From Gammaproteobacteria bacterium (GTDB taxonomy: Bacteria; Pseudomonadota; Gammaproteobacteria; Eutrophobiales; Eutrophobiaceae), in contig CAXMWX010000001.1 of NCBI GenBank assembly GCA_963422205.2, forward strand, positions 448,001 to 512,000: DNA of 64,000 nt, written 5' to 3'. The notes beneath the pieces were generated by a model, which was given only the letters and a program-made list of their open reading frames with translations, was not told the DNA's origin and searched no databases. This document shows, piece after piece, positions 31,113 to 51,777 of the stretch. The position numbers and the translations under genes were made by a program. Numbering within the stretch: the first letter of the stretch is position 1; every line of letters begins with the position of its first letter.

Positions 31113-31288
31113 TATCTTACATATAATTTGCATGGCAGCTTTTCTAAAAAATTCAACGCACGATGGTTACGTTTGACATGCAACGTTTTTTAGCCCTTCG
31201 TCTATGCACGGTCTCGGCGTAGTGGGGGGGTGTCTCAACTTAACGAGATCACAATGACTAAACCAACAACTATAGAGAGGAGGAGGTC

Positions 31289-33979: not shown

Positions 33980-34894
33980 ATGAATGCGGCTGTTAGACCC
34001 TGCGGCTTTTTGCTGTTAATGATGGCAGTGACCCTGATGGTGAGTGCCCAGGAGAGAGTTGACGGAAAAGCCGGAGGAGAAGCGCAGCAAGCTGAGTTAA
34101 TGACGGTGCTTAAAGTCTGTGCTGATCCGTTTATGTTGCCTTTTTCCAATCGCAAGGAAGAGGGTTTTGAGAACCGGATTGCCGAATTGTTTGCCGAGAG
34201 ATTGGGCGTGCCTGTTCGCTATGAGTTTTTCCCGCAGCGCATGGGCTTTATCAGGAACACCTTGCGGGCAGAGTCCGATGCTGGCCCGGGCTATAAATGC
34301 GATCTGGTCATCAATGTGCCGGAATCGTTTGAACTGGCTGCCACCACAGATTCTTATTACACCACGTCTTATGTGCTGGTCTTTGCCAGGGGCCGGGGCA
34401 TGGACAGCGTGACCTCGGCAGAGATGCTGGGGGAGTTGGTGAACACGCAGGGCGTGAAGATCAGGTTCGGGCTGGCCGATCGTGGCCCGGCCCAGTTCTG
34501 GGTCTCTAAGCATGGCTTGATGGGCAGCATCGTGCCTTATCAGGGGCAGCCCGGTGATGCCCGGGTCAATCCCGGAGAGCAACTGATCAAGGATATTCTG
34601 GCGGGCAAGATTGATGCCGCTATCGCCTGGGGGCCGACGGCCGGTTATTTTGCCAGCCAGGCAGATGCCAAAGACAAACTGGTGATCTTGCCGCTGCGGG
34701 ATGATCCGGATTCCCCTCGGATCAAGTTTGAATACAGCATGGCCATGGGCGTACGTTATGGTGAGAAAGCCTGGAAGGATAAAATCAACGGCCTGATTGC
34801 GGCCAATCAGGATGAGATCAATGCGATCCTGCAAGCATACGGCGTACCCTTGCTGCCGCTTAAACACGCCGCCGAACAAGATGATGATGACTGA
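33980..34894 (+). CDS. xoxJ: XoxJ/MxaJ-like periplasmic binding protein
   Basis: LKVCADP..LPFSN..EEGFEN, QRMGFIRNTL, AWGPTAGY, MGVR. Confidence 0.92.
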   Translation: MNAAVRPCGFLLLMMAVTLMVSAQERVDGKAGGEAQQAELMTVLKVCADPFMLPFSNRKEEGFENRIAELFAERLGVPVRYEFFPQRMGFIRNTLRAESDAGPGYKCDLVINVPESFELAATTDSYYTTSYVLVFARGRGMDSVTSAEMLGELVNTQGVKIRFGLADRGPAQFWVSKHGLMGSIVPYQGQPGDARVNPGEQLIKDILAGKIDAAIAWGPTAGYFASQADAKDKLVILPLRDDPDSPRIKFEYSMAMGVRYGEKAWKDKINGLIAANQDEINAILQAYGVPLLPLKHAAEQDDDD

Positions 34895-35699: not shown

Positions 35700-38435
35700 T
35701 CAAGCCGCTTCCAGCTTGACGGCGCAGTATTTAAATTCCGGTATCTTGCCGTAAGGGTCCAGTGCTTCAATGGTCAACAGGTTGGCCGCTGCCTCATGGT
35801 AGCAAAACGCCATGAAGACGTTGCCCGGTTGCAGTCTCGTATCTGCCCGGCTAATGGCCTCTACCGCCCCTCTTCTTGAACTGATATGTACCCGCTTGCC
35901 CGCATCCAGTGCAAGCCGGTCAAGATCATCGGGATGCACGCTGACCACCGGCAAGGGTTCCAGTTGGTTCAATATGCTGGCACGCCGGGTCATGCTGCCG
36001 GTGTGCCAATGTTCAAGCTGCCTGCCCGTGATGAAGATGAACGGGAATGCCTGATCCGGCAGTTCGGCGGCCATCTCATAGTCCGCTGAGACAAAACGGC
36101 CACGTTTGTCGTCGGTAGGGAAGCCCTCGGTAAAGATCACCGCCGTGCCGGGATCGCCTGTATTTAACAAGGGATAAGTTAAGGAATGTGCCTTGTCCAG
36201 TCTGTCCCATGTCATGCCCGCCATGCTGGGTGTTGCCTGTCTGATCTCGTTGAAGACAGATCCCGCTGAAGGGTAGTCCCAATCCAGCCCCAGGCGTTTT
36301 GCCAGTTCCTGGATGATCCATAAGTCCTGTCGGGCCTGGCCGGGCGGTTCGATGGCCTGTCTGCCGAGTTGTACCCGTCTGTCAGTGTTGGTAAACGTAC
36401 CGGTTTTCTCAGGGAAGGCAGAGGCGGGCAAAATCACATCGGCAAAGCCGGCGGTCTCGGTGAAAAAAATATCCTGCACGATGAGATGCCTTAATCTCGC
36501 CAGGGCAGCACGTGCATGGTGTAAATTGGGATCGGACATGGCCGGGTTTTCACCCATAATATACATCCCGTCCAACTCACCATCATGGATGGCGTGCATG
36601 ATCTCAACCACGGTCAGGCCGGGCTCTCTATCCAGTTCCGTGTGCCATAATTGTTCGAATTTTTGCTGTACCTGCTGATCGTTGACCGGCTGATAATCCG
36701 GGTAGACCATGGGGATGAGGCCAACATCGGATGCGCCTTGGACGTTGTTCTGTCCTCGCAATGGATGCAGGCCAGCCCCGGGGCGTCCAATCTGACCGGT
36801 CATCAAGGCCAGCGAGATAAGGCAGCGGGCATTGTCTGTGCCGTGCGTATGCTGGGAGATCCCCATGCCCCAGAAGATCATGGCGGCATCGGCCTTGGCA
36901 TAGATGCGGGCGACTTGTTTTAAGGTAGCGGCGTCAATACCGCAGATGGCAGCGACAGACTCCGGGCGGTATTTCGCTACGGCCGCTGTCAGCTCGGCAA
37001 AACCGTCCGTGTATTGCTCAATATAATCACGATCATAAAGCTCTTCTGTAATGATGGTGTGTATCATGGCATTGAGCATGGGAACATCGGTATCCGGCCG
37101 GAATTGCAAAAAGTAATCGGCATGACGGGCCAGATCAGAGCGATAGGGATCCATCAGGATGAGAGTCTTGCCGGCCTTGCTCGCATTCTTCATAAACGTA
37201 GCCGCCACCGGATGATTGACCGTCGGCCTGGCGCCAATGACGATGATGACCTCGGCCTCGCTGACATCGGTGACCGGATTGGATACTGCCCCTGAGCCGA
37301 TCGTCTCCAGCAGTGCGGCCACGGAAGAGGCATGACATAAACGGGTACAATGATCGACATTGTTTGAACGAAAGCCCGTTCTGATGAGTTTCTGAAACAG
37401 ATACGCCTCTTCATTGCTGCCCTTGGCCGAACCAAACCCCGCCAGTGCGCGTGCACCTTTGCCATCACGTATTGCCAATAACCCGGCGGCGGCAACATCC
37501 AGTGCCTCCTCCCAGCTTGCCTCAGTAAAGTAATCCATCCTGTTCTCAGGGGCGATCACCTCGGCGGTCTTGGGCGCATCCGGCTTGCGAATTAATGGCG
37601 TGGTGAGCCGGTCGGGATGATGCACATAATCAAAACCGTAACGGCCCTTGACACAAAGCCGGCCTTTATTGGCTGGCCCGTCTTTGCCGTTGACGGCGTG
37701 AATCCGGTTGTCCTTGACGTGATAGGTGAGCAGGCAGCCCACACCGCAGTAGGGGCAGACGGAATCCACCTGCTTATCGGCATCCTCCCCGGCCCGCCCA
37801 TTGACCGACATCAGGGCGCCGGTAGGGCAGGCTTGCACGCATTCCCCGCAGCTAACGCAGCTGCTCTCACCCAAGGGGTCATCACTATCGAAGACAATTT
37901 TTGCCTGCTCCCCCCGGAAGGCATAACCGATGACATCATTCACTTGCTCTTCCCGGCAGGCCCTGATGCAGCGTGTGCAGTGAATGCAGGTATCCAGGTT
38001 GACCTGGATTGCCGGGTGGCTTGAATCGGCAGCAACAGGCTTTCGAGCCGGGAGGCGTGGCCGGCCCACCGCCATCTCCCTGGCCCAGTAGTCCAGCTCT
38101 GATTGGCTGGTGTGTGGTGAGCCGCCCTGATCAGGCATATCCGCCAGTAACAACTCAAGGATCATTTTCTGTGCCTGCACCGCCCGTTCGCTGTCCGTGC
38201 TGACCTTCATGCCTGCCTGTGGCTGGCGGCAGCAGGCGGCGGCCAGCACCCGCTCGCCATCGATCTCGACCATGCAGGCCCGGCAGTTGCCATCAGCACG
38301 GTAGCCCGGTTTGTAGCAGAGATACGGGATAGCGACATGCAGGCGTTTTGCCGTTTGCAAAATGCTCTCACCGGCCAGAGCCTGCACGGGTTTGTCGTTT
38401 AAGTAAAAAGCAACCGGGTTTTCCTGTAAGGTCAT
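35700..38435 (-). CDS. fdhA: Formate dehydrogenase alpha subunit (Fdh1A-like, W/Mo-bisPGD)
   Basis: N-terminal FeS motifs, CPYCGVGC, DHCTRLCH, LRGQNNVQG, IPEFKYCAV. Confidence 0.95.
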   Translation of the reverse strand: MTLQENPVAFYLNDKPVQALAGESILQTAKRLHVAIPYLCYKPGYRADGNCRACMVEIDGERVLAAACCRQPQAGMKVSTDSERAVQAQKMILELLLADMPDQGGSPHTSQSELDYWAREMAVGRPRLPARKPVAADSSHPAIQVNLDTCIHCTRCIRACREEQVNDVIGYAFRGEQAKIVFDSDDPLGESSCVSCGECVQACPTGALMSVNGRAGEDADKQVDSVCPYCGVGCLLTYHVKDNRIHAVNGKDGPANKGRLCVKGRYGFDYVHHPDRLTTPLIRKPDAPKTAEVIAPENRMDYFTEASWEEALDVAAAGLLAIRDGKGARALAGFGSAKGSNEEAYLFQKLIRTGFRSNNVDHCTRLCHASSVAALLETIGSGAVSNPVTDVSEAEVIIVIGARPTVNHPVAATFMKNASKAGKTLILMDPYRSDLARHADYFLQFRPDTDVPMLNAMIHTIITEELYDRDYIEQYTDGFAELTAAVAKYRPESVAAICGIDAATLKQVARIYAKADAAMIFWGMGISQHTHGTDNARCLISLALMTGQIGRPGAGLHPLRGQNNVQGASDVGLIPMVYPDYQPVNDQQVQQKFEQLWHTELDREPGLTVVEIMHAIHDGELDGMYIMGENPAMSDPNLHHARAALARLRHLIVQDIFFTETAGFADVILPASAFPEKTGTFTNTDRRVQLGRQAIEPPGQARQDLWIIQELAKRLGLDWDYPSAGSVFNEIRQATPSMAGMTWDRLDKAHSLTYPLLNTGDPGTAVIFTEGFPTDDKRGRFVSADYEMAAELPDQAFPFIFITGRQLEHWHTGSMTRRASILNQLEPLPVVSVHPDDLDRLALDAGKRVHISSRRGAVEAISRADTRLQPGNVFMAFCYHEAAANLLTIEALDPYGKIPEFKYCAVKLEAA

Positions 38436-40096
38436 TTTGCAAACTCCTGAGGGAAATGGTTGATGGCCGAGCGCAGGGGATTAGGCGCCGCCTGACCCAG
38501 CCCGCAGATAGAGGCATCGGCCATGGCGGCACAAAGCTCCTCCAATAAGGCGACATCCCATTTTTCCCGTTGCATCAGCTTGACCGCCTTGGCCGTGCCG
38601 ACACGGCAGGGCGTACATTGGCCGCAGGATTCGTGGGCGAAAAAACGCATGCAGTTCAGCGCCAGCTGCCTTGCGGAGTCATGTTGTGACAACACAATAA
38701 TGGCCGCCGAGCCAATAAAACAGCCGGCCTCATGCAGCGTGTCGAAATCCAGCGGCAGATCCGCCAGGCTTGCCGGCAGGATGCCGCCTGAAGCACCGCC
38801 CGGAAAATAGCCATACAACTGATGCCCGGCGAGCATACCGCCGCAATACTCGGCAATCAATTCATTCAGTGTGATCCCGGCCGGGGCGAGATGGACTCCA
38901 GGCCGGTTGATGCGACCGCTGACAGAGAACGAGCGCAGACCCTGCCTGCCGTTGCGCCCATGCGATAAAAACCACGCCGGGCCCCTCTCCAGAATATCCC
39001 GCACCCAGTACAGGGTTTCCATGTTGTGTTCCAGGGTCGGCTTGCCAAACAAACCCACCTCGGCCACGAACGGCGGCCTTAGCCTTGGCATACCACGTTT
39101 GCCTTCGATGGATTCGATCATGGCCGACTCCTCCCCACAGATATAGGCACCCGCCCCCCGGCGCAGAATGATCTGTGGTGTTTGCAGGGTTTTATCGTTC
39201 GCCAGGGCCGCCAGCTCATGCTGCATTATCTGTCGGCATTCTGCATACTCATCACGTAAATACATATAGATCGCCTCGGCCTCTATTGCCCAGGCAGCGA
39301 TCAATACCCCCTCAAGCAGGCGGTGCGGGTCGCGCTCCAGATAATACCGATCCTTGAATGTGCCTGGCTCCCCCTCATCAATATTGACGGCGATCAGGCG
39401 CGGCTTTTTCTGCTGGCTGAGTATATCCCACTTCTTGCCGGCCGGAAATCCGGCACCCCCCAGGCCGCGCAAGCCGGCCGCCTGCATTTGCGAGATCACG
39501 TATGCACGTGTCAGGTCGCCGTCATGGCATTTTTTCAGCAGTTGATACCCCGCCGTGCGGCGATACGCATCCAGCGTGATATACGGCCTGAGTGTTGTCA
39601 CGGCTGTCTCGCCGCGCGCTATCATGGCGGTGATTTTTTTCGCCGTTGCCTGTTCTGCCGGGTTTGTCCCGACAACGGCCACGGGCGCACTATGGCATCG
39701 GCCGACACATGGCACAGGCTGAATACGTACCTTGTGGCGAGGGAGTTGTTGCTCAAGCTCGGCCATGAGGTGTTCAGCCCCGTACATCTCGCAGGTGATG
39801 GACTGACAGACCCGGACTGTCAACTCGGGCGGGGCGGGGTGCTGGTCTTTGACGACATCAAAATGATGATAGAAGGTGGCCACTTCATAAACCTCGGTGG
39901 TGGAGAGTTTTAACTCCTCAGCCAGTGCGGTGATGTGATCGGCGGAGATATGGTGATATTCATCCTGTAGCCGATGCAGAAATTCGATCAGCAGGTCTCT
40001 TCGTCTCGGCATACCTTCCAGCAGCTGTGTGATGGCCTGCCGTGATTGTGCATCGGCCTCCCGCCCGCGAAATTGATTGTTGATTTTTTTATTCAT
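38432..40096 (-). CDS. fdhB: Formate dehydrogenase beta subunit (NuoE/NuoF-like, FMN/NADH)
   Basis: GLRGLGGAGFP, DEGEPGTFKDR, GAGAYICGEE, ESCGQCTPCR. Confidence 0.93.
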   Translation of the reverse strand: MNKKINNQFRGREADAQSRQAITQLLEGMPRRRDLLIEFLHRLQDEYHHISADHITALAEELKLSTTEVYEVATFYHHFDVVKDQHPAPPELTVRVCQSITCEMYGAEHLMAELEQQLPRHKVRIQPVPCVGRCHSAPVAVVGTNPAEQATAKKITAMIARGETAVTTLRPYITLDAYRRTAGYQLLKKCHDGDLTRAYVISQMQAAGLRGLGGAGFPAGKKWDILSQQKKPRLIAVNIDEGEPGTFKDRYYLERDPHRLLEGVLIAAWAIEAEAIYMYLRDEYAECRQIMQHELAALANDKTLQTPQIILRRGAGAYICGEESAMIESIEGKRGMPRLRPPFVAEVGLFGKPTLEHNMETLYWVRDILERGPAWFLSHGRNGRQGLRSFSVSGRINRPGVHLAPAGITLNELIAEYCGGMLAGHQLYGYFPGGASGGILPASLADLPLDFDTLHEAGCFIGSAAIIVLSQHDSARQLALNCMRFFAHESCGQCTPCRVGTAKAVKLMQREKWDVALLEELCAAMADASICGLGQAAPNPLRSAINHFPQEFAK

Positions 40097-40105: not shown

Positions 40106-40924
40106 TTATTTTGGTGTGTTTAACAGGACAAGTAACTCCCCTTTGCCGTTCTCCGCCATATCGCCGGCATAGCGATGCACCTCAGGCCCGTAGTGCTTGA
40201 AGCGGCGATACCTGCTGCCCATGCGCGATAGCTGCTTGAAGAACAGCCGTAAATAGGCCATCTTCAAATGGCCGCAACTGACCATGCCCGCCCCCATCAG
40301 GGCCGGGGCAGATTGCATGATAATCGTGCCTCTTTTCATGCCATAGCCGGGCAGGTGGCCGCACTTGCCCAGCACCACTACCGTACCGGCAATCATATTC
40401 GCCCCCGTATAATCGCCAGCATCTTTAGCGATCAGGATCATCCCGCGGCGCATCTTCTGCCCGGCCCGATCACCGGCATTTCCCCACACCGTGATCAGGC
40501 CATCATCCATGCCGTGCCTGCCACAGCCGATAGCGTGACCGGCATCGCCCATCACCTCGATCCTGCCCCAGCGCATCTGCCACCCCAGCCAGTTGCCGCA
40601 GTGACCATGCACATGAATGCTGCCGCCCTGCATGGCTTCGCCCAGGTAATCGCCAGCGTGTGATTTGACAGTGATACGGCCCTTGGTCATGCCATAACCA
40701 ATACGCTGCACATATTCGTTAGTGCGCCGTATTTCGATGTCATTGGCATCGTTGCCCTGTAGGGTAAACAGCTCGCCAATGCGAATTTTCTCATTGCCAA
40801 GCCGTACCTTGAGCGCGGCGATGGCGTGTCGATCCCCGGCCCGGGCGAGCAGGTCCGGCGTCAACACCGATAAATCCAGCGTTTTATCCGGTTTGCTTAA
40901 CAGGGTAAAGATCATGCGGCTCAT
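40106..40924 (-). CDS. fhcC: Formyltransferase/hydrolase complex subunit C
   Basis: GxxMxxG beta-helix repeats, GKGELL end. Confidence 0.92.
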   Translation of the reverse strand: MSRMIFTLLSKPDKTLDLSVLTPDLLARAGDRHAIAALKVRLGNEKIRIGELFTLQGNDANDIEIRRTNEYVQRIGYGMTKGRITVKSHAGDYLGEAMQGGSIHVHGHCGNWLGWQMRWGRIEVMGDAGHAIGCGRHGMDDGLITVWGNAGDRAGQKMRRGMILIAKDAGDYTGANMIAGTVVVLGKCGHLPGYGMKRGTIIMQSAPALMGAGMVSCGHLKMAYLRLFFKQLSRMGSRYRRFKHYGPEVHRYAGDMAENGKGELLVLLNTPK

Positions 40925-41817
40925 GTCAGTATATCCCTTAAATGAAAGTGGTACGGCCCCAGTTTGCCGCCATAGTTCCCGGCGCTGATCCGGTAAATGC
41001 CCTTCTCCGGGCCATACTGACAGACCGCTTCAACCCCGGCCTTGATCGCGGCTTTTATTGCCGCTTCGCTCATACCATCGATCACGATCTCCAGCACCGA
41101 GCCGATCTCCTCGGTCAACATGCTGTCCACCTGGCCCTTTAGTGTCGGACAAAAGGCTTCGTTGGTGGAGGCGGGCAGGAAGGTGTATTTGGAGCCAACC
41201 TTTGAACCAGAACCGACAATGCCGCCGGGAAAGGTGGTGACCGCCCCGGGTATGTTGCTGATCGCTTTGACGGCTTTTTCACAGGCGAGCAGGCCCTGGC
41301 GTGATGTCCTGGCCATGACCATGAAATTACCACCACCGATCGCCGGCACCACGCCGGTAGACTCCTCGCACAGGAACTCGCCGTGCATCACCGGAATCCG
41401 CCAGTATCTGATCCCGGCCAGCACCTTGGCGATCTGATAACCATCACCAAAATACCGGAGATTTTTACCCAGTGGCAGCATGGTGTTGCTTCTGATGCCA
41501 GCAAAACATGCACTGGTGGCGGTGGTCATCACCGATTGCCCGACGCGCCGGGTGAGTTGGTCGGCCAGCTGAGTTTTTGACATGGCAAAGATCAAAACCG
41601 CCAGCCCGGGCCTGCCGTCCGGGGTTTCTGCCGGTTTTAATTCGCATTCAATGTCCGACTCGCAACCACAGGCGATGACCGAGGAGGCAAAGCCGGTCAG
41701 CGAGTTGGCCGCCCGGTACGCCCATTGCAGCGACATCGCCGTGATGATGATACGGGTGGCCTGCATCGGGAAGCCCTCGGCAAAGGTATCGTCTATGACT
41801 ATGCCGTTGATCTTCAT
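40921..41817 (-). CDS. fhcD: Formylmethanofuran:H4MPT formyltransferase (copy 1)
   Basis: DTFAE, GFASSVIACGCE, GSKVGSKY, SAGNYGGKLG. Confidence 0.95.
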   Translation of the reverse strand: MKINGIVIDDTFAEGFPMQATRIIITAMSLQWAYRAANSLTGFASSVIACGCESDIECELKPAETPDGRPGLAVLIFAMSKTQLADQLTRRVGQSVMTTATSACFAGIRSNTMLPLGKNLRYFGDGYQIAKVLAGIRYWRIPVMHGEFLCEESTGVVPAIGGGNFMVMARTSRQGLLACEKAVKAISNIPGAVTTFPGGIVGSGSKVGSKYTFLPASTNEAFCPTLKGQVDSMLTEEIGSVLEIVIDGMSEAAIKAAIKAGVEAVCQYGPEKGIYRISAGNYGGKLGPYHFHLRDILT

Positions 41818-41818
41818 A

Positions 41819-43471
41819 TTACCTGCCGGGCTGTACTGTCAAGGCGCTCTCATTGTAGCTTTCCAGCTCCGCTGTGCTTAACTTGAAATTACCCAGGCGC
41901 ATGGTCATGTAGTCATCGAAATAACGTTTTAACGAGCGCTCAATACCGGCATCGTAATCGGGCCTGAGCACGTGTGTGGTTGTTTTCGGCAGGGCGCAGA
42001 CCTTGCCGTCTTTCACCACCCGCTCGCCATTTTTAAATACATACGCTGGTCGGCTGAACATTCTCTCGACATTCTTATCGGGGCTGTAGACCGCGATATC
42101 AGCCCGTGCGCCAGCGCCCAGATGCCCGCTGTCAGTCAGCCCCAGGCTCCTGGCGGGGGCGGCACGGGTCAGGATGGCGATTTCATGCAGCGTGTATTCC
42201 CGGGTGATGCTGGCCAGATGGCTGGCCCCGGCGGCCTCTGGATGAATGCGCTTGAGCATATCGTTGCGAAAGCTCTTGTCCATCAATAGACGAATCAGAT
42301 GAGGGTATGAGGTGAACGGCGCACCATTGGGGTGATCGGTGGTTAAAAAAACACGCCAGGGATCGTCCACCAGCAAAAAGATCTCAAGGCCAATACACCA
42401 TTGCAAGGCGTTCACAAAACGCATGTCTCGATACTTGAACGGCACCACCCCGCAGCCGGCATCACATTCAATATCCATACAGACCCACTTATTCGGGTGT
42501 GCATGGGCATGGCCGGCATACTGCATCATGGTATCCGCCGATGTGGTGGCTGTCTGGCCGAACATGATCTGACCCACATCAATGGAAATATTGGGATTGC
42601 TGTTGACCGCTTCGGCAATCTCTGCGGCGGCTGAGGAGAAATTTCTGTCGCCCTCCTGTCCATAGCTGTGAAACTGGACATGCGTTAAGTGCATGGGCCG
42701 TCCCTGTGCGGCGGCGATGGTATCTAACGTGGTCTTGACATTCCCCGGCACGCCCAGGTTACAGCCGTGTACATGCAGCGGGTGGGGTATGGCGATGTCG
42801 GCCACGGCGGTGAGTAATGCCGTCAAGATCGTGCGCGGCGTCAGGCCATAGTGGCGATTTTTCTCATCCAGATCGAGCTGGCGCTGATTAAATTTAAAGG
42901 CACTGATGCCGCCGGGGTTGACCGTCTTTACCCCCATTGCCTGGGTAGCTTGAATAGTCCAGGCGATGTAATCGTTGATGAGTTGCTGATCACGCCCGGC
43001 TTTAAGCAGGCGCAAAAAAAAGTCATCATTGCCTAACAACACATAGGCCCCGGTGTCCAGCATCGGTGTGTCCGCCATCTCCATGTGCGTCTGGCGTGCA
43101 TTGACCGGCAACATGGCTGGTTCAAAGCAGGAGGTATAACCCATCTCAGCATAGCGATAGCCGGTAATGAAGCTGGAGGGCGTACACCGCCCGGAGCCGG
43201 AGCGGGTCAAGCGCCCCCTCCTGACTCTGTTGTCTGCGTGATCCTCGGCCAGCAGCATGCGCCCGATATTGACCTTGCCGCCGCCTATGTGCGTATGGAT
43301 ATCAATCCCTCCCGCCATCACTATCTTGCCGCTGACATCAATAACGGCATCGATCTTTTGATTCCTACCGGGCTTGACCAGCCTGCCATCCTCAATAAAC
43401 ACATCACGTTTTTTACCCGTATCCGCATTCGCCGGATCATAAATGCGACCGCCTTTCAGTCGCATCAGCAT
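41819..43471 (-). CDS. fhcA: Formyltransferase/hydrolase complex subunit A
   Basis: DIHTHIGGGKVN, HLTHVQFHSY, TTDHPNGAPF. Confidence 0.95.
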   Translation of the reverse strand: MLMRLKGGRIYDPANADTGKKRDVFIEDGRLVKPGRNQKIDAVIDVSGKIVMAGGIDIHTHIGGGKVNIGRMLLAEDHADNRVRRGRLTRSGSGRCTPSSFITGYRYAEMGYTSCFEPAMLPVNARQTHMEMADTPMLDTGAYVLLGNDDFFLRLLKAGRDQQLINDYIAWTIQATQAMGVKTVNPGGISAFKFNQRQLDLDEKNRHYGLTPRTILTALLTAVADIAIPHPLHVHGCNLGVPGNVKTTLDTIAAAQGRPMHLTHVQFHSYGQEGDRNFSSAAAEIAEAVNSNPNISIDVGQIMFGQTATTSADTMMQYAGHAHAHPNKWVCMDIECDAGCGVVPFKYRDMRFVNALQWCIGLEIFLLVDDPWRVFLTTDHPNGAPFTSYPHLIRLLMDKSFRNDMLKRIHPEAAGASHLASITREYTLHEIAILTRAAPARSLGLTDSGHLGAGARADIAVYSPDKNVERMFSRPAYVFKNGERVVKDGKVCALPKTTTHVLRPDYDAGIERSLKRYFDDYMTMRLGNFKLSTAELESYNESALTVQPGR

Positions 43472-44715
43472 CCGCTTATCGCCTGTAGCCGGGCTATGAT
43501 CTGTTTAAGCACAGCACCTGTGCTGTACAGTTCGCTGTCACGCAGCTTTTTTAATGGCAGATTGATCACCGCATCGGCACGAAACAGGTTGCCTGCATGA
43601 TCGATGCCGGGCGTGCCTACCGGCAGGTATATCGTGGCACCTTTGCGAACGGCCTGATTGTTCGAGATGATGATGCCTGGCACATCCAGGGTCGGCGGGG
43701 TATCTCTCTCCAGGCTGGAAATCCAGACCAGGGCATCACACTCGGCCGGGTATGGCGTGTACGGGTCGGGTTGGCTGTCGGGGAAGCCATCGGTAAAACG
43801 CAGCCCGGCGGGGAAACCGGTTTGCCAGGTGGCGACTTGTTGTAACGATCCACCGGCATTATTATCCGTCAGTGCCAGCCCGGCGGCCCGTTGGCGTTGA
43901 TTCAGTTTGGCGATCAGATCGGTGATCGTGCGGATAAGCAAATCGGCACTGTCTGCCGGCAGGGCGGCGGCCGACCAGATAAAAACCGGATAGTGCGCTG
44001 CCTGGATCAGGGCGCTTGCCTGCTTGAGTTTTTTCAGTTTTTCTCTGGCAATGTTTTGATCCGTACCGCGCTGACCAAGCAGCGTGCATTTAAGTAATGT
44101 CAGCAGGTTGAGCAGCCCGTTGCCAGTGGCCGGTATGTGCAGTAAAGATTCGCCCAGTTTGATTTTCTCCTGCCGGCTCGCCTGCCCGATACAGATCAGT
44201 TTTCTCCGCTGTCCTTTGGGAAGAAACTGCGCCTGCCTGGTGGTGATAAACCTGTCGAGCAGGCGGGGGTACTTCGTGGTGATTTTATCGCCGATGAACA
44301 CCACCACATCGGCGCGATTTTTCAACTCGGCAAACGTGGTCATCATCCCGCCGCCGGTCTGCATCACATTGAGATTGTGTAATGTGCTGTCCTCGTATTT
44401 GTGTCGGATCACCGCATTGGTTAATTCGGCGAGATGAAGCGCCGCACGGAGCCCGTTTATGTCTGTCCCGAGATCGGCAATCAGCGGTCGCCTGGATTTT
44501 TTCAGCAGGATGGCGGCGTGTTTTACCGCCTCTGTATGTGATACGGGTTGTTGGTGTGCATAGGCTTGTGCTCCTGGCGGGGCCTGCTTAAAGCCCCGGG
44601 CGGCAAGTACACAGCCATGATTGACGACCTGCAATCGCCTCTGCCGTGCCTGCACGGACAGATCATCACATAATAGACTGCAAAAAGGGCAGGTTATGTC
44701 ATGCAATGTCGTCAC
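43465..44715 (-). CDS. fhcB: Formyltransferase/hydrolase complex subunit B (non-catalytic)
   Basis: CPFCSLLCDD, ELKNRADV, WQTGFP; lacks catalytic Cys-His and RGH. Confidence 0.9.
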   Translation of the reverse strand: MTTLHDITCPFCSLLCDDLSVQARQRRLQVVNHGCVLAARGFKQAPPGAQAYAHQQPVSHTEAVKHAAILLKKSRRPLIADLGTDINGLRAALHLAELTNAVIRHKYEDSTLHNLNVMQTGGGMMTTFAELKNRADVVVFIGDKITTKYPRLLDRFITTRQAQFLPKGQRRKLICIGQASRQEKIKLGESLLHIPATGNGLLNLLTLLKCTLLGQRGTDQNIAREKLKKLKQASALIQAAHYPVFIWSAAALPADSADLLIRTITDLIAKLNQRQRAAGLALTDNNAGGSLQQVATWQTGFPAGLRFTDGFPDSQPDPYTPYPAECDALVWISSLERDTPPTLDVPGIIISNNQAVRKGATIYLPVGTPGIDHAGNLFRADAVINLPLKKLRDSELYSTGAVLKQIIARLQAISGC

Positions 44716-44822: not shown

Positions 44823-46196
44823 TCAGTCCAACAAGGCCAGCATGGCAGAGATGTCGGTATATTTTTCTCGGGGCTTTCCCGCTGCCTGGCCTCGCTCTAT
44901 CTCGCTTGCGTCAATTTTTTTCCAATCCTCAAAACTGACGTATCGTATGTTACGTTCAGTCAGGATCGTATAACAGCCTTCAGCCCCGGTTTTCGCCTCG
45001 CCTGTGTCAAGCCGGTCGATGTCGTCAAGTAAACAACCGACAGTCTCAACACTGTCTGCGCGGTTGGTGCCGATGATACCAGTTGCCCCCCGTTTTATCC
45101 ATCCTGCGGTATACAGCCCGGGCATGAGGCCATCGGCAGCGTGAATACGCCCCATCTGGTTGGCAAAGACCCCGCTGCTCTCATCAAACGGCACACCGGG
45201 CATCGCCCGTCCCTGATAGCCGATGCTGCGAAACACGAGGCCTGTTTCTATCTCATACCTTGCCCCCGTCCCGTGTGCTTTTTGGGAGAAGGGTTCGCCC
45301 GCCAGCCGGTTACTCTCCAGCACGATGCGCTGCACCCGGCCATTGCCAGTGATGGCCACCGGGCTGTTAAGAAAGGTAAATCGGCATTGTCTTGCCTTGG
45401 TGGTGCGGCGTTCGGAGAATTGTTTGAATAGATCCACCACCTTCCGACTGCCAGCGTTGGTTTTCTCGGCAAGTTCGGCCTTGCTTTCGGGATTAAGCTG
45501 CAAGTCCTCTGTGGCAACCACCGGATCGCACATGGCCAGCTCTCCAAATTCCTTCAGCTCTTTTGAGGTAAATTTCGCCTGTGCCGGCCCCCGCCGGCCA
45601 ATCACATACACCTGCTTGATTTTGCTCATCGCCAGGGCATCCAGTGCATGTTGGGCGATGTCGGTGTGTTTTAACTCATCGATCGTCTTGCTGAGGATAC
45701 GGCTGACATCGGCTGCCACATTCCCCTGGCCGATGATGACCGCCGTCTCATGGGAAAGATCAAATTGCCGATCACGGTAATCCGGGTGACCGTTATACCA
45801 GCCGACAAACTCGGTTGCCGTATGACTGCCGGGCAGGTCTTCACCCGGAATCTCCAGCCGGCGGTCGGTCTCGGCACCACAACTTAAAATGACCGCATGG
45901 TGGGTTTGTTGCAACTCTGTGATGCTGATATCCCGGCCCACAGTCACGTTGCCGAGGTAGTTGAATTGGCTCGCCTCGGCGATGCGGGCATAGACCTTGA
46001 TCACCTGCTTTAACTTGGGATGATCCGGGGCGACTCCGCTACGCACCAGACCATAAGGAGTGGGCAGGCGTTCCAGCAGGGTAATGTTCACCGTCAAGGC
46101 GGATTTAAGCAGTGCCTCGGCGGCATAAAAACCGCTGGGGCCGCTGCCGACGATAGCGACCTGAAGCGGGTTAGCCGGCGTGCCTGTGTGACTCAT
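44823..46196 (-). CDS. Ferredoxin-NADP+ reductase (FprA/adrenodoxin reductase type)
   Basis: GSGPSG, GLVRSGVAPDH, IGQGNVAADV, GWIKRG, GKPREK. Confidence 0.92.
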   Translation of the reverse strand: MSHTGTPANPLQVAIVGSGPSGFYAAEALLKSALTVNITLLERLPTPYGLVRSGVAPDHPKLKQVIKVYARIAEASQFNYLGNVTVGRDISITELQQTHHAVILSCGAETDRRLEIPGEDLPGSHTATEFVGWYNGHPDYRDRQFDLSHETAVIIGQGNVAADVSRILSKTIDELKHTDIAQHALDALAMSKIKQVYVIGRRGPAQAKFTSKELKEFGELAMCDPVVATEDLQLNPESKAELAEKTNAGSRKVVDLFKQFSERRTTKARQCRFTFLNSPVAITGNGRVQRIVLESNRLAGEPFSQKAHGTGARYEIETGLVFRSIGYQGRAMPGVPFDESSGVFANQMGRIHAADGLMPGLYTAGWIKRGATGIIGTNRADSVETVGCLLDDIDRLDTGEAKTGAEGCYTILTERNIRYVSFEDWKKIDASEIERGQAAGKPREKYTDISAMLALLD

Positions 46197-46249
46197 GGCC
46201 TGTCGTGTTTTTTAACCGATGCCAGGGCGAGACTGCCTTGACAGCGTGG

Positions 46250-46555
46250 TCATAAACCCAGGGCGGCCTTCTTCTCATCGGCACCGGGCAGGGGTTCCAT
46301 GGAATCGGCGCAAACGGGCAGGGCAGGTGCTCTCTGGGCATTGATGTCAATCCACTCCAGCTTGTCTTCCGGCAAGTCATCTTCCTCATAAATGGCCTGC
46401 ACCGGGCATTCCGGGATACAGGCGCTACAGTCAATGCAGACATCGGGATCGATGTAGAGCATCTGCTCATCATAGTGAAAACACTCTACCGGGCAGACAG
46501 TCACGCAGTCTGTGTAACGGCAGTCTTTACAATTATCGGTGACAACGGTCGTCAT
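46250..46555 (-). CDS. Dicluster ferredoxin (FdxA/7Fe type)
   Basis: CxxCxxxxCxxxCP and CIDCSACIPECP. Confidence 0.93.
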   Translation of the reverse strand: MTTVVTDNCKDCRYTDCVTVCPVECFHYDEQMLYIDPDVCIDCSACIPECPVQAIYEEDDLPEDKLEWIDINAQRAPALPVCADSMEPLPGADEKKAALGL

Positions 46556-46638
46556 GTTTCTCTCCTTAAAGCCGGGTGCTGAACGATGCAGATTCTAACC
46601 TGCCTGCAGGGGGTAATGATAGCTTAAAAATAAAAATC

Positions 46639-47451
46639 TCAGCCGGCGTAAAGTAATATTTCACCTTTATTTAACTCCACGCCATCCCCGCAAAAACGCC
46701 TGTAGCTGCCGGCTTTATGTGCTGCCGTCAAGGCCAGCCCCAGCTGTTGCAGATAAATAAAATACATACGCAGAAAGGCCGGCGGCCAGGTGCAGGCGTA
46801 AGTGAAGGTCGGTAACAACTCCGCCTGCTTGAGCGATACGATAGACCCTCTTTTCATGCCGGCCCCGGTGCGAAGCCCCAGCTCTCCCAACACCATGATC
46901 GTACCGGCCAGCATGTTCACGCCGGTGAAGTCGCCGCTGTTGCCGGCGATGGCGATCAGCCCATTACGCATGGCATGACCCACTTCGTTACGGGCGCTGC
47001 CGTGGATGATGATCTCCCCGCCACACATGCCCGTGGCCGCCCCCCGGTAGGCACTGCCAATCATGTGGCCAGCATCACCATAGATGATGATGCGACCGCC
47101 GGACATCTCCGGCCCGACCCAGTCGTCAGCGTTGCCCTCTACCCGTATCTCACCGCCCCGCATCCCCGCCCCCAGATGCGGGCCGACATCGCCCTCAATA
47201 TGCAGGCTGCCATGGGTCATCTGGGCGCCCAGGAATTTAACTTTGGACAGATCGCCAGAGATACGCACCGTGCGGTCATCTGCATTGCCTGAAACAGCAA
47301 AAAAATCGGCCAGCAGGCAGGGCTGATTGCCATAGTGCAGGGGCAGTTTTTCAATCTCGGTATGGCCTAACCCAGATAATCTGTCGGGGGTGATGGTATC
47401 GGCTTCCAGCGGCACATCAGGGCAGACCCGTTGTGTAAGTTCCAGTGCCAT
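46639..47451 (-). CDS. fwdC: Formylmethanofuran dehydrogenase subunit C (copy 2)
   Basis: GxxMxGG repeats, KGEILL end. Confidence 0.9.
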   Translation of the reverse strand: MALELTQRVCPDVPLEADTITPDRLSGLGHTEIEKLPLHYGNQPCLLADFFAVSGNADDRTVRISGDLSKVKFLGAQMTHGSLHIEGDVGPHLGAGMRGGEIRVEGNADDWVGPEMSGGRIIIYGDAGHMIGSAYRGAATGMCGGEIIIHGSARNEVGHAMRNGLIAIAGNSGDFTGVNMLAGTIMVLGELGLRTGAGMKRGSIVSLKQAELLPTFTYACTWPPAFLRMYFIYLQQLGLALTAAHKAGSYRRFCGDGVELNKGEILLYAG

Positions 47452-47452
47452 G

Positions 47453-48340
47453 TCAACCGGCCATGAGTTCATGTAAGTGAATTTTATATTGCCCCAGGCT
47501 GCCGCCATAATTCCCTGCACTGATCTTGACCACCCCTGGCCGGGCGGCGGCCTCCACACCTGCCTGCATTGCCGCCCTGATGGCAGCTTCTGTGAGTCCG
47601 TCGATGACTATCTCCAGTACACAGTTGACCTCATCGGGTAATGCCGTGCTGGTGAGGGCCTTTAAGGTGGGGCAATAGGCTTCGTTGGTTGAGGCGGGCA
47701 GCCCCTTGTAGCGAGAGCCGACCTTGCTGCCGCTACGTACCACACCATCCGGGAAAGGCAGGATGATATCGCCGCACATACGCATGGCCTGCACCGCTGC
47801 CGTGGCGGCGGACAGGCCCTGTTCTGCATCGGTTGCCATCAGGATAATATTGCCGCCTGCCACGGCCTCCTGCACGGCAAAACTCTCGGCCACGGTAAAC
47901 TCACCATCCATCACCGGAATACGCCAGTAGCGCCGGCCGGCAAGTTGTTTACTGGCCTGGAAGCCATCGCCGAAATAGCGCAGTTGGGAGCCAACCTGCA
48001 CAGTCTGTTCATTCTCAAGCCCGCTGAAACATGCCGTGGTCGGGCAGGTCATCACACACTGGCCGATGCGTTCCACCAGCCGTTTGCCAACCGCTGCCTT
48101 GTCCATCGCAAATAACAAGACACTGACGCCAGGCCGCTCGTCCGGTGTTTGTTCGGGCGATAATGTGGTTTCAATGCCGGCTTCGCATTGGCAGCCAATG
48201 ATGGAGGTGGCGAATCCGGTCATTGTCTGTGCGGCGGCCAGCGCCCATTGTTCAGTCGCCGCGGTGATGATCACACGTGTGCCCCACAGTGCGAAGGCCT
48301 CAGCAAAGGTATCTGCTATGTCGGTGGTTCTGAGCCTCAT
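47453..48340 (-). CDS. ftr: Formylmethanofuran:H4MPT formyltransferase (copy 2)
   Basis: DTFAEAF, RIGQCVMTCPTT, RSGSKVGS, SAGNYGG. Confidence 0.95.
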   Translation of the reverse strand: MRLRTTDIADTFAEAFALWGTRVIITAATEQWALAAAQTMTGFATSIIGCQCEAGIETTLSPEQTPDERPGVSVLLFAMDKAAVGKRLVERIGQCVMTCPTTACFSGLENEQTVQVGSQLRYFGDGFQASKQLAGRRYWRIPVMDGEFTVAESFAVQEAVAGGNIILMATDAEQGLSAATAAVQAMRMCGDIILPFPDGVVRSGSKVGSRYKGLPASTNEAYCPTLKALTSTALPDEVNCVLEIVIDGLTEAAIRAAMQAGVEAAARPGVVKISAGNYGGSLGQYKIHLHELMAG

Positions 48341-49980
48341 CCTGGCACGGTTGCAATGATTTGGTGATCATGCAGGTAGCTGTCGTTGACGGCATAGTTA
48401 TCGAACTCAATGGAGTAATAGTTCTCAAAGAACGGCCTCACCTGCCGAACAATGCCATCATCATAACCGGGTTCGACATGTAAAAATTTACCGCTGTGAT
48501 CCTGGCGGAACTCATGATCTTCTATCACCGGTATGCCGGCCTTGAAGACATACCGCGGTGCATTGAACATGGCCTCTTTGTCTTCCATGTCATCATAGAC
48601 GGTGATGTCGGCATCGGCACCGGCCGCCAAATGCCCCTTGTTGTTCAAACCCAGCGCCCGGGCCGGGCCGGCGCGGGTGATGATGGCGATCTCGTTTAGG
48701 GTATATTCCCGATCTAGCTCGTTCAGCATGGTCTGGTTGATCGCCTTTTGGTTCACCCGCTTGATCTCCTCGGCACGAAACGCGCTGTCCATCAGCAGCC
48801 GGATCAGTTTAGGATAGCTCATGAACGAGCCGCCGTTGGGGTGATCCGTTGACAGCACGATGCGCCAGGGATCGTTTGACAGCAGGAATAATTCGAGACC
48901 AATCGCCCATTGCAGGGCGTGTACGTAGACATGTTCCTGGTAGTTGAACGGCACGATGCCGCAGCCGCTTTCACATTCGGTATCCGCATTGACCCATTTG
49001 CCCTTCTTAAACCCCCGCAACATGTACGCCAGGGGTGCATCGGCGGTCATGATGGTGGATTTGCCAAACATGACCTGGCCGACATCGCAGGTAATGTTCG
49101 GATGGGCATTGACATACTCGGCTATTTCTCTGGCGGCTGATTTCGGGTTTTTACCCAACTCGCCGGCATAGCTGTGAAACTGGATATGGGCGAGGTGGAC
49201 CCGTCTGTCAGCGGCGGTTTTCATGGTCTCCAGCGTGGTGGTGACATTGCCGCTGTGGCCGAGGTTGTTGCAATGAATGTGCGGCGGGTGAGGCAGGCCC
49301 AGTGCATTGACGCTGTCAATAAACGCCTCAATAATCTGCCGTGGCGTGATCTCAAAGACATCGCTCTGCTCATCAATGTGGGTAACATTGGCATTTTTTT
49401 TGCCCTTCCAGGGCTCATCGCCGCCCGGGTTGACCAGCTTGGTCGTGTAGGCCTTGGTTGCATTGATCCACCAGGCAACCGCCTGTTTGAACTCCTCTGT
49501 GCGCTTTTCCCTGAGCAGTTGCTGTAGAAAGATATTATTGCCGAGCAACACATAAAAGCCTTTATCGATCACGGGTGTGTCGTGCAATTCCTCAATGGTA
49601 TGGCGAGCGCCAATGGGCGTGACGGCAGCTTCCATGGCCGTGGTGTAACCCAGGGCGGCATAGCGGTAGCCCGTGGCAAAGGTTGAGGGGACGGTGCCGC
49701 CTGAGCCAGACCGGGTACAAGCGGTGGCCGGATGGGGATCATGCCGATGATCCTCCGGCTGGAGTTTGCGCGCCAGATTGACCTTCGGGCCGGCGATATG
49801 GCAATGAATGTCCACCCCGCCGGGCATGACGACCATGCCATCAAGGGCATATCTTCTCGGCGTAGCAGAGGGTGATTTAACGATTATGCCGTTTTCAATA
49901 AAGAGGTCTTTGACCTGGCCGTTGATACCATTGCCAGGGTCATATACCCGGCCGCCAGCAAGCTGTATGCAGTCTGTCAT
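48337..49980 (-). CDS. fwdA: Formylmethanofuran dehydrogenase subunit A
   Basis: DIHCHIAGPKVN, KLVNPGG, HIHCNNLG, STDHPNGG. Confidence 0.93.
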   Translation of the reverse strand: MTDCIQLAGGRVYDPGNGINGQVKDLFIENGIIVKSPSATPRRYALDGMVVMPGGVDIHCHIAGPKVNLARKLQPEDHRHDPHPATACTRSGSGGTVPSTFATGYRYAALGYTTAMEAAVTPIGARHTIEELHDTPVIDKGFYVLLGNNIFLQQLLREKRTEEFKQAVAWWINATKAYTTKLVNPGGDEPWKGKKNANVTHIDEQSDVFEITPRQIIEAFIDSVNALGLPHPPHIHCNNLGHSGNVTTTLETMKTAADRRVHLAHIQFHSYAGELGKNPKSAAREIAEYVNAHPNITCDVGQVMFGKSTIMTADAPLAYMLRGFKKGKWVNADTECESGCGIVPFNYQEHVYVHALQWAIGLELFLLSNDPWRIVLSTDHPNGGSFMSYPKLIRLLMDSAFRAEEIKRVNQKAINQTMLNELDREYTLNEIAIITRAGPARALGLNNKGHLAAGADADITVYDDMEDKEAMFNAPRYVFKAGIPVIEDHEFRQDHSGKFLHVEPGYDDGIVRQVRPFFENYYSIEFDNYAVNDSYLHDHQIIATVPG

Positions 49981-50037: not shown

Positions 50038-51414
50038 TCATGGCATGGCGGCGGTCATCTGCTCATCTGCATCAGCACGCCGAACGATGTGACTGCTCTC
50101 GCTTCTGGCCTGTACCAACTCCTGCACACGCTGTTTGATGGCCGTGAGTATCTCCTCATCGGTGGGGAAGGGCGAATCATAGACCTTACGCAGGGTGATG
50201 GGGACATCGTCCATGCGATAGACCGTGCCGGTGGTGTTGATGCCGTAGGTTGCCGTCCGAAAAGCGACATGTGCCAGCCTGCTGGTCAGGGTTTCCTTGG
50301 TATCCAGGCAGATCACCGGTATGTTGGACAGATGATCGATCGCTGCCCTGGGGAAATTAGCCGCCGGATCACTGGCGATAATCAAGGCGGCATCAGCATC
50401 TTGTTTTGCCAGGACATCGACCGTGGTAAATTCGCCCGGGTTAAACCGCGGGAAGCCGCGGCTGAAATTCACGCCAAAGGGATACCCTGTCTGCCAGGAC
50501 AGGACGTTATCAGCACCGGTCACGTTGCCATGACCACGCACTGGCTTGGCGACAAAATGGGTATATTCGTTTAAGTCTGTTGCCAGTGCCAACAGGGCGC
50601 CTGAGTTGAAATGTCGGCCGCGGGTCATGGTCAGCCCCATGCCAAAAAACAGCACGCCGTAGCGACAGTTCCTCATCATCTCCACCAGCATCTGCATCAC
50701 CTGCTGGCTGACGCCGGTAATCGCTTCAATATTCTCGGCCAGTGATCGGCCTTTGAGCAAGGCACGCAGCGCCCACAGCAATTCAAAATCCTTACCCGGT
50801 TTGACCTGCACAAAATGATTGGCCGCCGGTGCGCTGGGCGTCTTGCGTACATCCACCACCACGACCGTGCGATCTTTCTTGCCTTTGGGGGTGAACATCC
50901 CCTTGGCCGTGACGGCATAGCGACCGAAATGGCGCGGGTGCGATTCCGCCGGATTGCCGCCCCAGTAGATGACCAGATCGGCGCGGTTTTTAACCTCGCC
51001 CAGCGTCATGGTGCTCTCCCCTACCCCCTGAAAGGCCAGGCCTGATGGCCCGTGGCAGACCGAGGTGGTGGTGTCTATGTTGCCCCGGCTAATATCGGCA
51101 ATCGCCACCGCCTGTCGCTGTGCCTCGCAGGTGGTATCACTCAGGCCATAGATGATCGGGAACCTCGCCCGGGCGAGGGTCTGTGCGGCCTGTTCAATGG
51201 CCTCATCCAGCGATGCCGGCTGGCCGTCGATCAACGCCGCCGGGGCAGCTTCGTCGATCGTATGTTCAGCAAACCAGGCACGACCCAGCACGCAGGCATT
51301 TTTTGATTTGATAATGCGTTTCGCCTCCTCATCCACACTCAAGATCATGTCATCACACACACAGCCACAGAAGGTGCAGGTGGCGTTTTTGATCACGTTG
51401 ATATTGGCGCTCAT
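50038..51414 (-). CDS. fwdB: Formylmethanofuran dehydrogenase subunit B, catalytic residues intact
   Basis: CTFCGCVCDD..C, SVCHGP, HPRH, RGHGNVTG, VYRMD. Confidence 0.93.
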   Translation of the reverse strand: MSANINVIKNATCTFCGCVCDDMILSVDEEAKRIIKSKNACVLGRAWFAEHTIDEAAPAALIDGQPASLDEAIEQAAQTLARARFPIIYGLSDTTCEAQRQAVAIADISRGNIDTTTSVCHGPSGLAFQGVGESTMTLGEVKNRADLVIYWGGNPAESHPRHFGRYAVTAKGMFTPKGKKDRTVVVVDVRKTPSAPAANHFVQVKPGKDFELLWALRALLKGRSLAENIEAITGVSQQVMQMLVEMMRNCRYGVLFFGMGLTMTRGRHFNSGALLALATDLNEYTHFVAKPVRGHGNVTGADNVLSWQTGYPFGVNFSRGFPRFNPGEFTTVDVLAKQDADAALIIASDPAANFPRAAIDHLSNIPVICLDTKETLTSRLAHVAFRTATYGINTTGTVYRMDDVPITLRKVYDSPFPTDEEILTAIKQRVQELVQARSESSHIVRRADADEQMTAAMP

Positions 51415-51420: not shown

Positions 51421-51777
51421 TTACGTTACCGGTTGAATTGATGAGATTTTCTCTACATCCACTGCCAGGTGTTTTGAGAGCGGCATACCGCTGCCCGCCG
51501 TATCGCTTTCCATAAGCTGGCTGGACTGGGGGCCGTAGGGAATGAACAGCATACCGGCGGGCAGACCGGTGCCCGCCGTACAGGTGACGATTGCCTCGCC
51601 GATGGCATTGCTTAACCGCAGGCGATCGCCCTCGCTGAACCCCAGGTGCTGCATATCCTCCTGACTCATCTCGACAGTGGAGGTGACTTGCTGGTAGTCC
51701 GCTTTCAGCTTACCTTTGTTGAGTGTGGTGCCCTGTTGTTTCGAACGCCCGGGCACCAGGAGCATATTTGTTGGCAT
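51421..51777 (-). CDS. fwdD: Formylmethanofuran dehydrogenase subunit D (pterin dinucleotide-binding)
   Basis: GRSKQQG, GMLFIPYGP, TAGSGMP. Confidence 0.88.
   Translation of the reverse strand: MPTNMLLVPGRSKQQGTTLNKGKLKADYQQVTSTVEMSQEDMQHLGFSEGDRLRLSNAIGEAIVTCTAGTGLPAGMLFIPYGPQSSQLMESDTAGSGMPLSKHLAVDVEKISSIQPVT

Follow-up and report, generated by a model that had tools for sequence, protein, structure and literature searches.

The window analyzed here is a 64,000-nucleotide stretch of the genome of a methanol-using gammaproteobacterium (contig CAXMWX010000001.1 of GCA_963422205.2, an assembly of 2.99 Mb in 14 contigs that is 97.97% complete). It carries an array of 13 same-strand genes on the minus strand between positions 51777 and 35700, extending from fwdD to the gene for a formate dehydrogenase alpha subunit (Table 1). 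The subject of this study is the leading part of the array, fwdD-fwdB-fwdA-ftr-fwdC-fdxA-fprA, which encodes homologues of the subunits of formyl-methanofuran dehydrogenase (FMD) together with a formyltransferase, a ferredoxin and a flavin-dependent reductase. An earlier note on this DNA had placed a 7Fe-type ferredoxin and an FprA-type reductase at 44823..46555, directly behind fwdC. The coordinates proved to be exact, and the identities agreed with the register of the cysteines and with matches to the structures 1frk, 1lqt and 1cjc. Both genes indeed lie behind fwdC, whose stop is at 46639, in the same orientation, with spacers of 83 nt (fwdC-fdxA) and 53 nt (fdxA-fprA), and a spacer of 107 nt separates fprA from fhcB. 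As the fwdC open reading frame (ORF) in its listed form overlaps ftr and its family match begins only at residue 39, the true start of fwdC is probably located near 47445. FwdD scored 70.1 bits against NF042908, under the cut-off of 175, which is an archaeal cut-off.

The FwdB subunit was aligned with FwdB of Methanothermobacter wolfeii (PDB 5t5i_B) over residues 7-433 (E 3.4e-116), with the N-terminal cysteine motif and the Cys-His pair of 'SVCHGPS' in register. The [4Fe-4S] cluster residues C13, C16, C20 and C41, the catalytic pair C120-H121 and R293 were invariant in 29 orthologues. In FhcB, Cys118, His119, Arg288 and the N-terminal [4Fe-4S] domain have been lost, together with FwdD (Hemmann et al., PMC6926001, in excerpt). 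As the cluster cysteines, the Cys-His pair and the arginine are all kept and FwdD is present, the fwdDBA-ftr-fwdC set looks redox-competent on this prediction, unlike Fhc. The window also contains an Fhc set downstream of fprA. Its FhcB scored low (Table 1) and, when aligned to 5t5i_B, has a residue other than Cys in the catalytic position, and a second fwdD was not found in the genome. The two sets are thus not redundant: Fwd should release CO2 and electrons, and Fhc should release formate for the downstream NAD-linked formate dehydrogenase.

The N-terminal C-x2-C-x3-C...C motif that characterizes FwdB was retained in the FhcB of the window and in all 21 of the FhcB-type orthologues read for it (L002-L025, L037 and L057). 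This differs from FhcB of Methylorubrum extorquens, which is devoid of the whole N-terminal [4Fe-4S] domain. The four-cysteine motif in a redox-dead FhcB could be an evolutionary intermediate or the site of a structural cluster.

The absence of polyferredoxin genes claimed in the earlier note was borne out when every ORF of 50 aa or more was scanned for ferredoxin motifs: no polyferredoxin, defined as an ORF with more than two C-x2-C-x2-C-x3-C motifs and a Pfam match, was found in the window or in the 14-contig assembly. The sole ORF of the window with two ferredoxin motifs was the formate dehydrogenase alpha subunit. A 175-aa ORF on contig C1 with four cysteine motifs was rejected as a polyferredoxin, having no Pfam or NCBIfam match and overlapping longer ORFs.

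The cysteines of FdxA follow the pattern C9-x2-C12-x4-C17-x3-C21-P ... C25 ... C40-x2-C43-x2-C46-x3-C50-P, and all nine were invariant across 30 orthologues. The best solved relatives were structures of the Azotobacter 7Fe ferredoxin I (1frk, E 3.4e-30, residues 4-95 on 3-94 of 106). On these grounds FdxA is assigned as a 7Fe ferredoxin of the Azotobacter FdI type, predicted to carry one [3Fe-4S] and one [4Fe-4S] cluster. The potentials of the two clusters in Azotobacter FdI are approximately -0.42 V ([3Fe-4S]) and -0.65 V ([4Fe-4S]). Against NF045490, the model for the proteobacterial FdxA equivalog, the fwd-linked protein reached 115.1 bits, below the cut-off of 135, whereas a second FdxA of 107 aa, encoded at G000:C5:300020-300343 (L132:4024-4344, minus strand) and 50% identical to the fwd-linked copy, passed with 164 bits. 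The fwd-linked gene is thus a divergent paralogue rather than the canonical fdxA, and by this comparison a dedicated one. The similarity of FdxA to FwdG was limited to one Fer4 motif (E 2.2e-4), and FdxA is not an FwdG orthologue. A search for FdxA fusions among longer proteins returned 20 extended ferredoxins (184-277 aa), none of them joined to FprA or to an Fwd subunit, although an empty result of this kind is weak evidence.

The reductase matched FprA of Mycobacterium tuberculosis over its full length (1lqt, E 4.3e-105, residues 10-453 on 3-451), and a full-length match was also obtained with bovine adrenodoxin reductase (1cjc, E 5.6e-103). The segments GSGPSG (17-22), GQGNVA (155-160) and GRRGP were aligned and conserved with the mycobacterial protein. 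We take the arginine pair of GRRGP to be the binder of the 2'-phosphate. The gene is single-copy in the assembly, the sole other genomic match being a GltD-like protein of 31% identity. These features identify the product, as far as homology can tell, as an NADPH:ferredoxin reductase of the FprA/adrenodoxin-reductase type.

Distribution of the fdxA-fprA pair

The linkage of the ferredoxin and reductase genes to bacterial fwd, which had been set beforehand as the refuting test, was found to be kept in two phyla and in two gene orders. Among the best 80 genome loci of a survey based on FprA, in which the closest relatives were metagenome-assembled genomes (MAGs) of Gammaproteobacteria, fwd genes adjoined fprA in 31. 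The order fwdDBA-ftr-fwdC-fdxA-fprA was seen in 29 of these, and the order fdxA-fprA-fwdD... in the other two, one from Gammaproteobacteria (L034) and one from Gemmatimonadales (L036). At 12 of the 80 loci fdxA stood beside fprA without fwd, four of these (L024, L025, L028 and L051) lying at contig ends or on very short contigs, and at the remaining 37 neither fdxA nor fwd was beside fprA.

The frequency of the arrangement was then estimated in an even sample of the class Gammaproteobacteria, of which 400 genomes were scored (one more was unscored), with a match of E <= 1e-60 taken as true FwdB. Such a FwdB was detected in 21 of the 400, including the genome of the window. Among the 20 others, fdxA-fprA or fprA lay beside fwd in 15 of the 16 assessable loci; in one of these (L113) fprA alone was visible, at a contig end, and four loci (L107, L111, L112 and L115) were not assessable as they were cut by contig ends. 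This count includes four unpublished genomes (G296, G039, G308 and G141), without which 13 loci are linked, none is unlinked and 3 are not assessable.

In Gemmatimonadota, 301 sampled genomes yielded six with a FwdB 67-73% identical to that of the window and about 33 with an FhcB-type match of 33-40% identity. In five of the six FwdB loci fprA lay directly upstream of fwdD, accompanied by fdxA in two of them (L036 and L122). When five of the approximately 33 Fhc-only loci were fetched, none had fdxA or fprA within about 8 kb, and the pair remained by fwd in loci without downstream fhc. The linkage in two phyla and two gene orders, together with these Fhc-only loci, indicated that the pair follows the redox-active Fwd and not Fhc. 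A further phylum sample around G402, whose record is labelled Planctomycetales, gave 0 matches in 301 genomes; at sizes of 0.7-2.7 Mb, these genomes are uninformative on Planctomycetes.

Two further loci were noted in the course of these surveys. In a Gemmatimonadota genome (L126, G551:C3), fwdDBA-ftr-fwdC is nested in an fhc set (fhcB-A-D ... fhcC). In a gammaproteobacterium (L121, G361:C33), fwdB, fwdA and fwdC contain stops or frame breaks and the upstream fdxA-fprA look intact, which may reflect a decaying fwd operon or assembly errors.

A tree of FprA was constructed from loci of the FprA, FwdB and Gemmatimonadota sets whose FprA match was free of stops and covered 400 aa or more, excluding loci of unpublished genomes. 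It comprised 93 rows and was built with a quick method, with support from the Shimodaira-Hasegawa-like approximate likelihood ratio test (SH-aLRT) only. One clade of 56 rows (SH-aLRT 99) contained all 47 fwd-linked rows and nine of the 11 fdxA-only rows, and FprA genes without adjoining fdxA were placed outside it. The Gemmatimonadota rows were nested among gammaproteobacterial rows with a support of 100, which is consistent with the module having been transferred as a whole.

The same cassette was also found beside other enzymes. Where fwd was lacking, fdxA-fprA adjoined another ferredoxin-dependent enzyme in five of the eight loci annotated. In two of them (L030:1605-6928 and L035:6197-11595) the cassette was followed by a three-subunit OOR-like 2-oxoacid:ferredoxin oxidoreductase, to which oxalate oxidoreductase models were closest, with scores below their cut-offs. 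In three others (L070:7491-11344, L053:6407-11353 and L044:6163-11347), from hosts comprising a Methylopila, a Burkholderiales MAG and a Bradyrhizobium, it lay beside unassigned cytoplasmic Mo-enzymes of the dimethyl sulfoxide (DMSO) reductase family, which are approximately 720-750 aa long and contain an Fe4S4 domain; cassette and Mo-enzyme are separated by a MoaA gene in L044. No such ferredoxin-dependent enzyme was present among the annotated neighbours in L033, L052 and L066.

A candidate electron path to NADP+ and its alternatives

Taking these observations together, we regard it as probable, though far from secure, that fwdD-fwdB-fwdA-ftr-fwdC-fdxA-fprA constitutes a bacterial redox-active FMD with its own electron outlet to NADP+. 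Ftr would pass the formyl group from tetrahydromethanopterin (H4MPT) to methanofuran (MFR), FwdA would hydrolyze formyl-MFR to formate within the complex, and FwdB/D would oxidize formate to CO2 at the W/Mo-pterin site. The two electrons would exit singly from the [4Fe-4S] cluster of FwdB to FdxA, which would dock on FwdB and accept them one at a time on its [3Fe-4S] cluster, and FprA would pair them on its flavin adenine dinucleotide (FAD) and reduce NADP+. The net reaction would be formyl-MFR + NADP+ -> CO2 + MFR + NADPH. In the work on the 5T5I complex, FwdG and FwdF reportedly continue the electron wire from FwdB; FdxA and FprA may stand in for them functionally, as the earlier note had supposed, and replacing a 32-iron polyferredoxin by a 7Fe ferredoxin that is stable in air would suit an aerobe. 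In M. wolfeii, the [4Fe-4S] cluster of FwdB exchanges electrons with the tungstopterin centre (PMC6926001, in excerpt).

Comparative genomics and thermodynamics both support the coupling of FMD to this pair. The NADP+/NADPH couple has a potential of -0.32 V. That of the formyl-MFR/CO2 couple is approximately -0.53 V (PMC11656701, in excerpt). The resulting drop of about 0.2 V, or about -40 kJ/mol, from formyl-MFR to NADP+ would make the reaction oxidative and essentially irreversible. The suggestion of the earlier note that such a wire favours the oxidative direction agrees with these potentials; the direction and the reaction themselves, like the contact between FdxA and FwdB, co-transcription and NADP+ as final acceptor, are what we infer.

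Several observations weigh against this interpretation. Co-folding of FwdB with FdxA gave a median interface score (ipSAE) of 0.42 (runs 0.42, 0.02 and 0.66; best control 0.00), with a confidence score (pLDDT) of the partner of at least 86 and contact agreement of at least 38%, and thus only weak support for the contact. Passes at scores of 0.60 or below were few among solved complexes (18 of 157), and this range also contained both of the passing mismatched pairs. Since FwdG, which is ferredoxin-like, has already been solved on FwdB, the pass may also reflect memory. The known Mycobacterium couple runs from NADPH to ferredoxin. Among the Gammaproteobacteria, L108 showed no fdxA-fprA pair in the 6.6 kb downstream of fwdC, and its contig ends 0.4 kb upstream of fwdD. 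In Gemmatimonadota, three loci (L123, L124 and L125) carried fprA without adjoining fdxA, in pieces in the case of L123, and L126 had neither gene. The relatives are not independent samples, as many of the loci belong to one gammaproteobacterial radiation. The occurrence of the cassette beside other enzymes, moreover, marks it as a general module that does not fix the direction by itself.

The last of these points bears on the alternative that survives best, in which Fwd does pass its electrons to FdxA but reduced FdxA mainly feeds other ferredoxin reactions, FprA acting solely as a valve that balances the NADP(H) pool against that of ferredoxin. The unrelated low-potential enzymes adjoining the cassette are in its favour, and the Gemmatimonadota loci with fprA but no adjoining fdxA imply that the pair is not an obligate unit. 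Of the two genes, however, it is fprA that is more faithfully linked to fwd in both phyla, a separate canonical FdxA is available for general duties, and another consumer of ferredoxin was not found in the operon. We therefore consider this arrangement unlikely, while granting it more than any other alternative.

Less probable still is a maintenance role, in which NADPH, through FprA and FdxA, would serve in an aerobe to reactivate the W/Mo-pterin and Fe-S centres of Fwd, which are sensitive to oxygen, or to hold them in the reduced state, rather than the pair acting as the catalytic outlet. The direction of the mycobacterial couple is compatible with this role, as are the weak co-fold result and the way of life of the host, which uses a pyrroloquinoline quinone (PQQ) methanol dehydrogenase and hence probably lives with oxygen. 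It would leave Fwd without an identified electron acceptor in a genome in which no polyferredoxin was found, and a stoichiometric operon linkage kept in two phyla would sooner be expected of a catalytic partner.

A reverse run from NADPH through FprA and FdxA, with Fwd fixing CO2 onto MFR for assimilation, is very improbable. Fwd is reversible in methanogens, and some relatives carry sulfur-oxidizer lineage labels in their record titles, but two electrons would have to climb approximately 0.2 V (about +40 kJ/mol), and the operon encodes neither a bifurcating nor an ion-coupled component. The surrounding genes also form a C1 island of oxidative character, with a PQQ dehydrogenase, fae, mch, Fhc and the NAD-linked formate dehydrogenase. 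Equally slight is the chance that fdxA-fprA is a housekeeping pair lying between two C1 operons by accident: such pairs do occur without fwd (L028, L030, L033, L035, L044, L051, L053, L066 and L070), but the linkage recurs in both phyla, in two different gene orders, and tracks Fwd rather than Fhc, fdxA is a dedicated paralogue, and even without fwd the pair mostly neighbours another ferredoxin-dependent enzyme.

Relation to known systems and the surrounding region

The coupling of FMD to NADP+ through FdxA and FprA was compared with the systems known for either half. The window set resembles the M. wolfeii FwdABCDFG complex (PDB 5T5I) in its FwdA, B, C and D homologues and in the catalytic and cluster residues of FwdB. 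It differs in lacking FwdF and FwdG, in having ftr in the operon and the 7Fe ferredoxin and FAD reductase after fwdC, and in belonging to a bacterium, in which the direction is presumably oxidative. Oxidative use with an acceptor far more positive than ferredoxin is shared with the FMD of Candidatus Ethanoperedens thermophilum (PMC11493965 and PMC11656701, both in excerpt), for whose F420-coupled enzyme a 'thermodynamic pull' has been proposed (PMC11656701). That FMD is archaeal and reaches F420 via an electronically connected reductase, whereas the window set is proposed to reach NADP+ via a soluble-type 7Fe ferredoxin and FprA. The FhcABCD complex of M. extorquens (PDB 6S6Y; PMC6926001, in excerpt) has the same position in the pathway and a formyltransferase within its operon, and an Fhc set of this type is held by the window as well (40106-44715). 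In contrast to that redox-dead, formate-releasing complex, the window fwd genes keep every dehydrogenase feature described there as well as FwdD.

The couple of FprA and 7Fe FdxA of M. tuberculosis (PDB 1LQT) consists of the same two protein families. In the available part of its description (PMC6208970), the mycobacterial FprA prefers NADPH, with a 71-fold lower Km, and passes electrons to 7Fe FdxA; the couple delivers NADPH electrons to P450s, while that of the window, by a low-potential dehydrogenase, is expected to run towards NADP+. An actinobacterial fwdDBA-ftr-fwdC operon without fwdE/F/G shares the order of all five genes, the catalytic cysteine and the [4Fe-4S] domain (Merino et al. 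2020, PMC7325909, in excerpt). That operon comes from an anaerobe and a Wood-Ljungdahl context, and the excerpt does not name its electron partner.

Other published accounts were also consulted. A 2024 review of FMD treats polyferredoxin, Hdr-supercomplex and F420-reductase modules, and the term 'NADP' does not occur in it (PMC11656701). A fwdD homologue is said in the accessible portion of Chistoserdova (2016, PMC5020050) not to be present in Planctomycetes or Proteobacteria. The 'fwdD' encountered in a Hyphomicrobium preprint proved to be the name of a primer. Full-text literature searches, with most subscription journals outside their scope, did not turn up a paper in which FMD is connected with FprA or with a 7Fe ferredoxin; in one of them, a review on F420 (PMC8498797) was the sole paper to mention both FMD and fprA.

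The usual teaching is that H4MPT-linked C1 oxidation in bacteria ends with a redox-dead Fhc and formate dehydrogenase. The sampled Gammaproteobacteria include a complete and apparently active Fwd in 21 of 400 genomes, and the same pair of outlet genes almost always accompanies it. If the proposed path is true, it would provide a direct route from the formyl group to CO2 that yields NADPH, or reduced ferredoxin, and not NADH, and it would explain how a very low-potential archaeal enzyme has been fitted to aerobic bacteria. FdxA and FprA would then do the job that in archaea falls to the FwdG/FwdF polyferredoxins, Hdr supercomplexes or an F420 reductase, and an NADP-linked module, of interest for the engineering of CO2 and formate conversion, would join these three. 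On a broader claim our judgement is evenly divided: FwdABCD-Ftr with FdxA and FprA may form an oxygen-tolerant, NADP+-linked fourth electron module of FMD, spread by transfer in marine and soil Gammaproteobacteria and Gemmatimonadota, whose portable cassette would, in aerobes, connect the NADP(H) pool with several low-potential oxidoreductases, among them Fwd, OOR-like 2-oxoacid:ferredoxin oxidoreductases and cytoplasmic Mo-enzymes.

Table 1. Features of the window around the fwd-fdxA-fprA genes
Feature	Position	Strand	Basis of assignment
fwdD, molybdopterin-dinucleotide-binding cap subunit	51421..51777	(-)	PF01568 E 1.9e-11; NF042908 FwdD E 1.8e-19
fwdB, catalytic W/Mo-pterin subunit	50038..51414	(-)	TIGR03129 523.1 bits (cut-off 327.8)
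fwdA, amidohydrolase subunit	48337..49980	(-)	TIGR03121 706.7 bits (cut-off 392.75)
ftr, formyl-MFR:H4MPT formyltransferase, inside fwd operon	47453..48340	(-)	PF01913 and PF02741; TIGR03119 432.4 bits
fwdC, ORF as listed	46639..47559	(-)	TIGR03122 271.5 bits (cut-off 130.65), residues 39-302
TAGAAT hexamer, possible internal -10	46592..46597	(-)	in fwdC-fdxA spacer
fdxA, 7Fe ferredoxin, 101 aa	46250..46555	(-)	Cys pattern; 1frk match
fprA, FAD-dependent NADPH:ferredoxin reductase, 457 aa	44823..46196	(-)	1lqt and 1cjc matches
fhcB	43465-44715	(-)	TIGR03129 226.1 bits, below cut-off 327.8
fhcA	41819-43471	(-)	passes TIGR03121
fhcD	40921-41817	(-)	passes TIGR03119
fhcC	40106-40924	(-)	passes TIGR03122
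NuoE/NuoF-like fusion	38432-40096	(-)	Complex1_51K, 2Fe-2S_thioredx and NADH_4Fe-4S domains
Formate dehydrogenase alpha subunit (FdhA)	35700-38435	(-)	TIGR01591 744.5 bits (cut-off 666.25)
PQQ methanol/ethanol-family dehydrogenase, 650 aa	31289-33241		

The array is also surrounded by mch, fae and genes for the biosynthesis of H4MPT and MFR, which, with the PQQ dehydrogenase, characterize the region as a C1-oxidation island. The PQQ dehydrogenase is accompanied by a TIGR04557 'quinoprotein dehydrogenase-associated SoxYZ-like carrier' and a MoxJ_2-type binding protein, the three together occupying 29823-33241 and 33980-34894.

The spacers of the array were searched for transcription signals. 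The TAGAAT hexamer was located where the earlier note had proposed an internal -10, but the proposed promoter role found weak support: a consensus promoter scan of the window gave six promoter-like sites when compared to 8.2 expected, none of them at TAGAAT, and the -35 ahead of it was poor by eye. The window contains the hexamer three times, where shuffles predict 14.25 occurrences, and standing alone it is no evidence for a promoter. A GGTAnAnT-like element was seen in the fwdC-fdxA spacer of five of nine relatives inspected (L001, L003 and L005-L007) and was missing from the same spacer of L002 (approximately 28 nt), L009 and L010. An internal promoter in this spacer is possible. The scan reported 18 terminator-like sites against 10.1 expected; when its coordinates were read against those of the genes, none fell in the fwdC-fdxA, fdxA-fprA or fprA-fhcB spacers.

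At a distance from the array, a short ORF at 10623-11276 on the plus strand matched part of an IS481-family transposase (62 bits, cut-off 224) and is probably a remnant. It sits in a stretch of lower G+C content (0.487 at 8001-10000).

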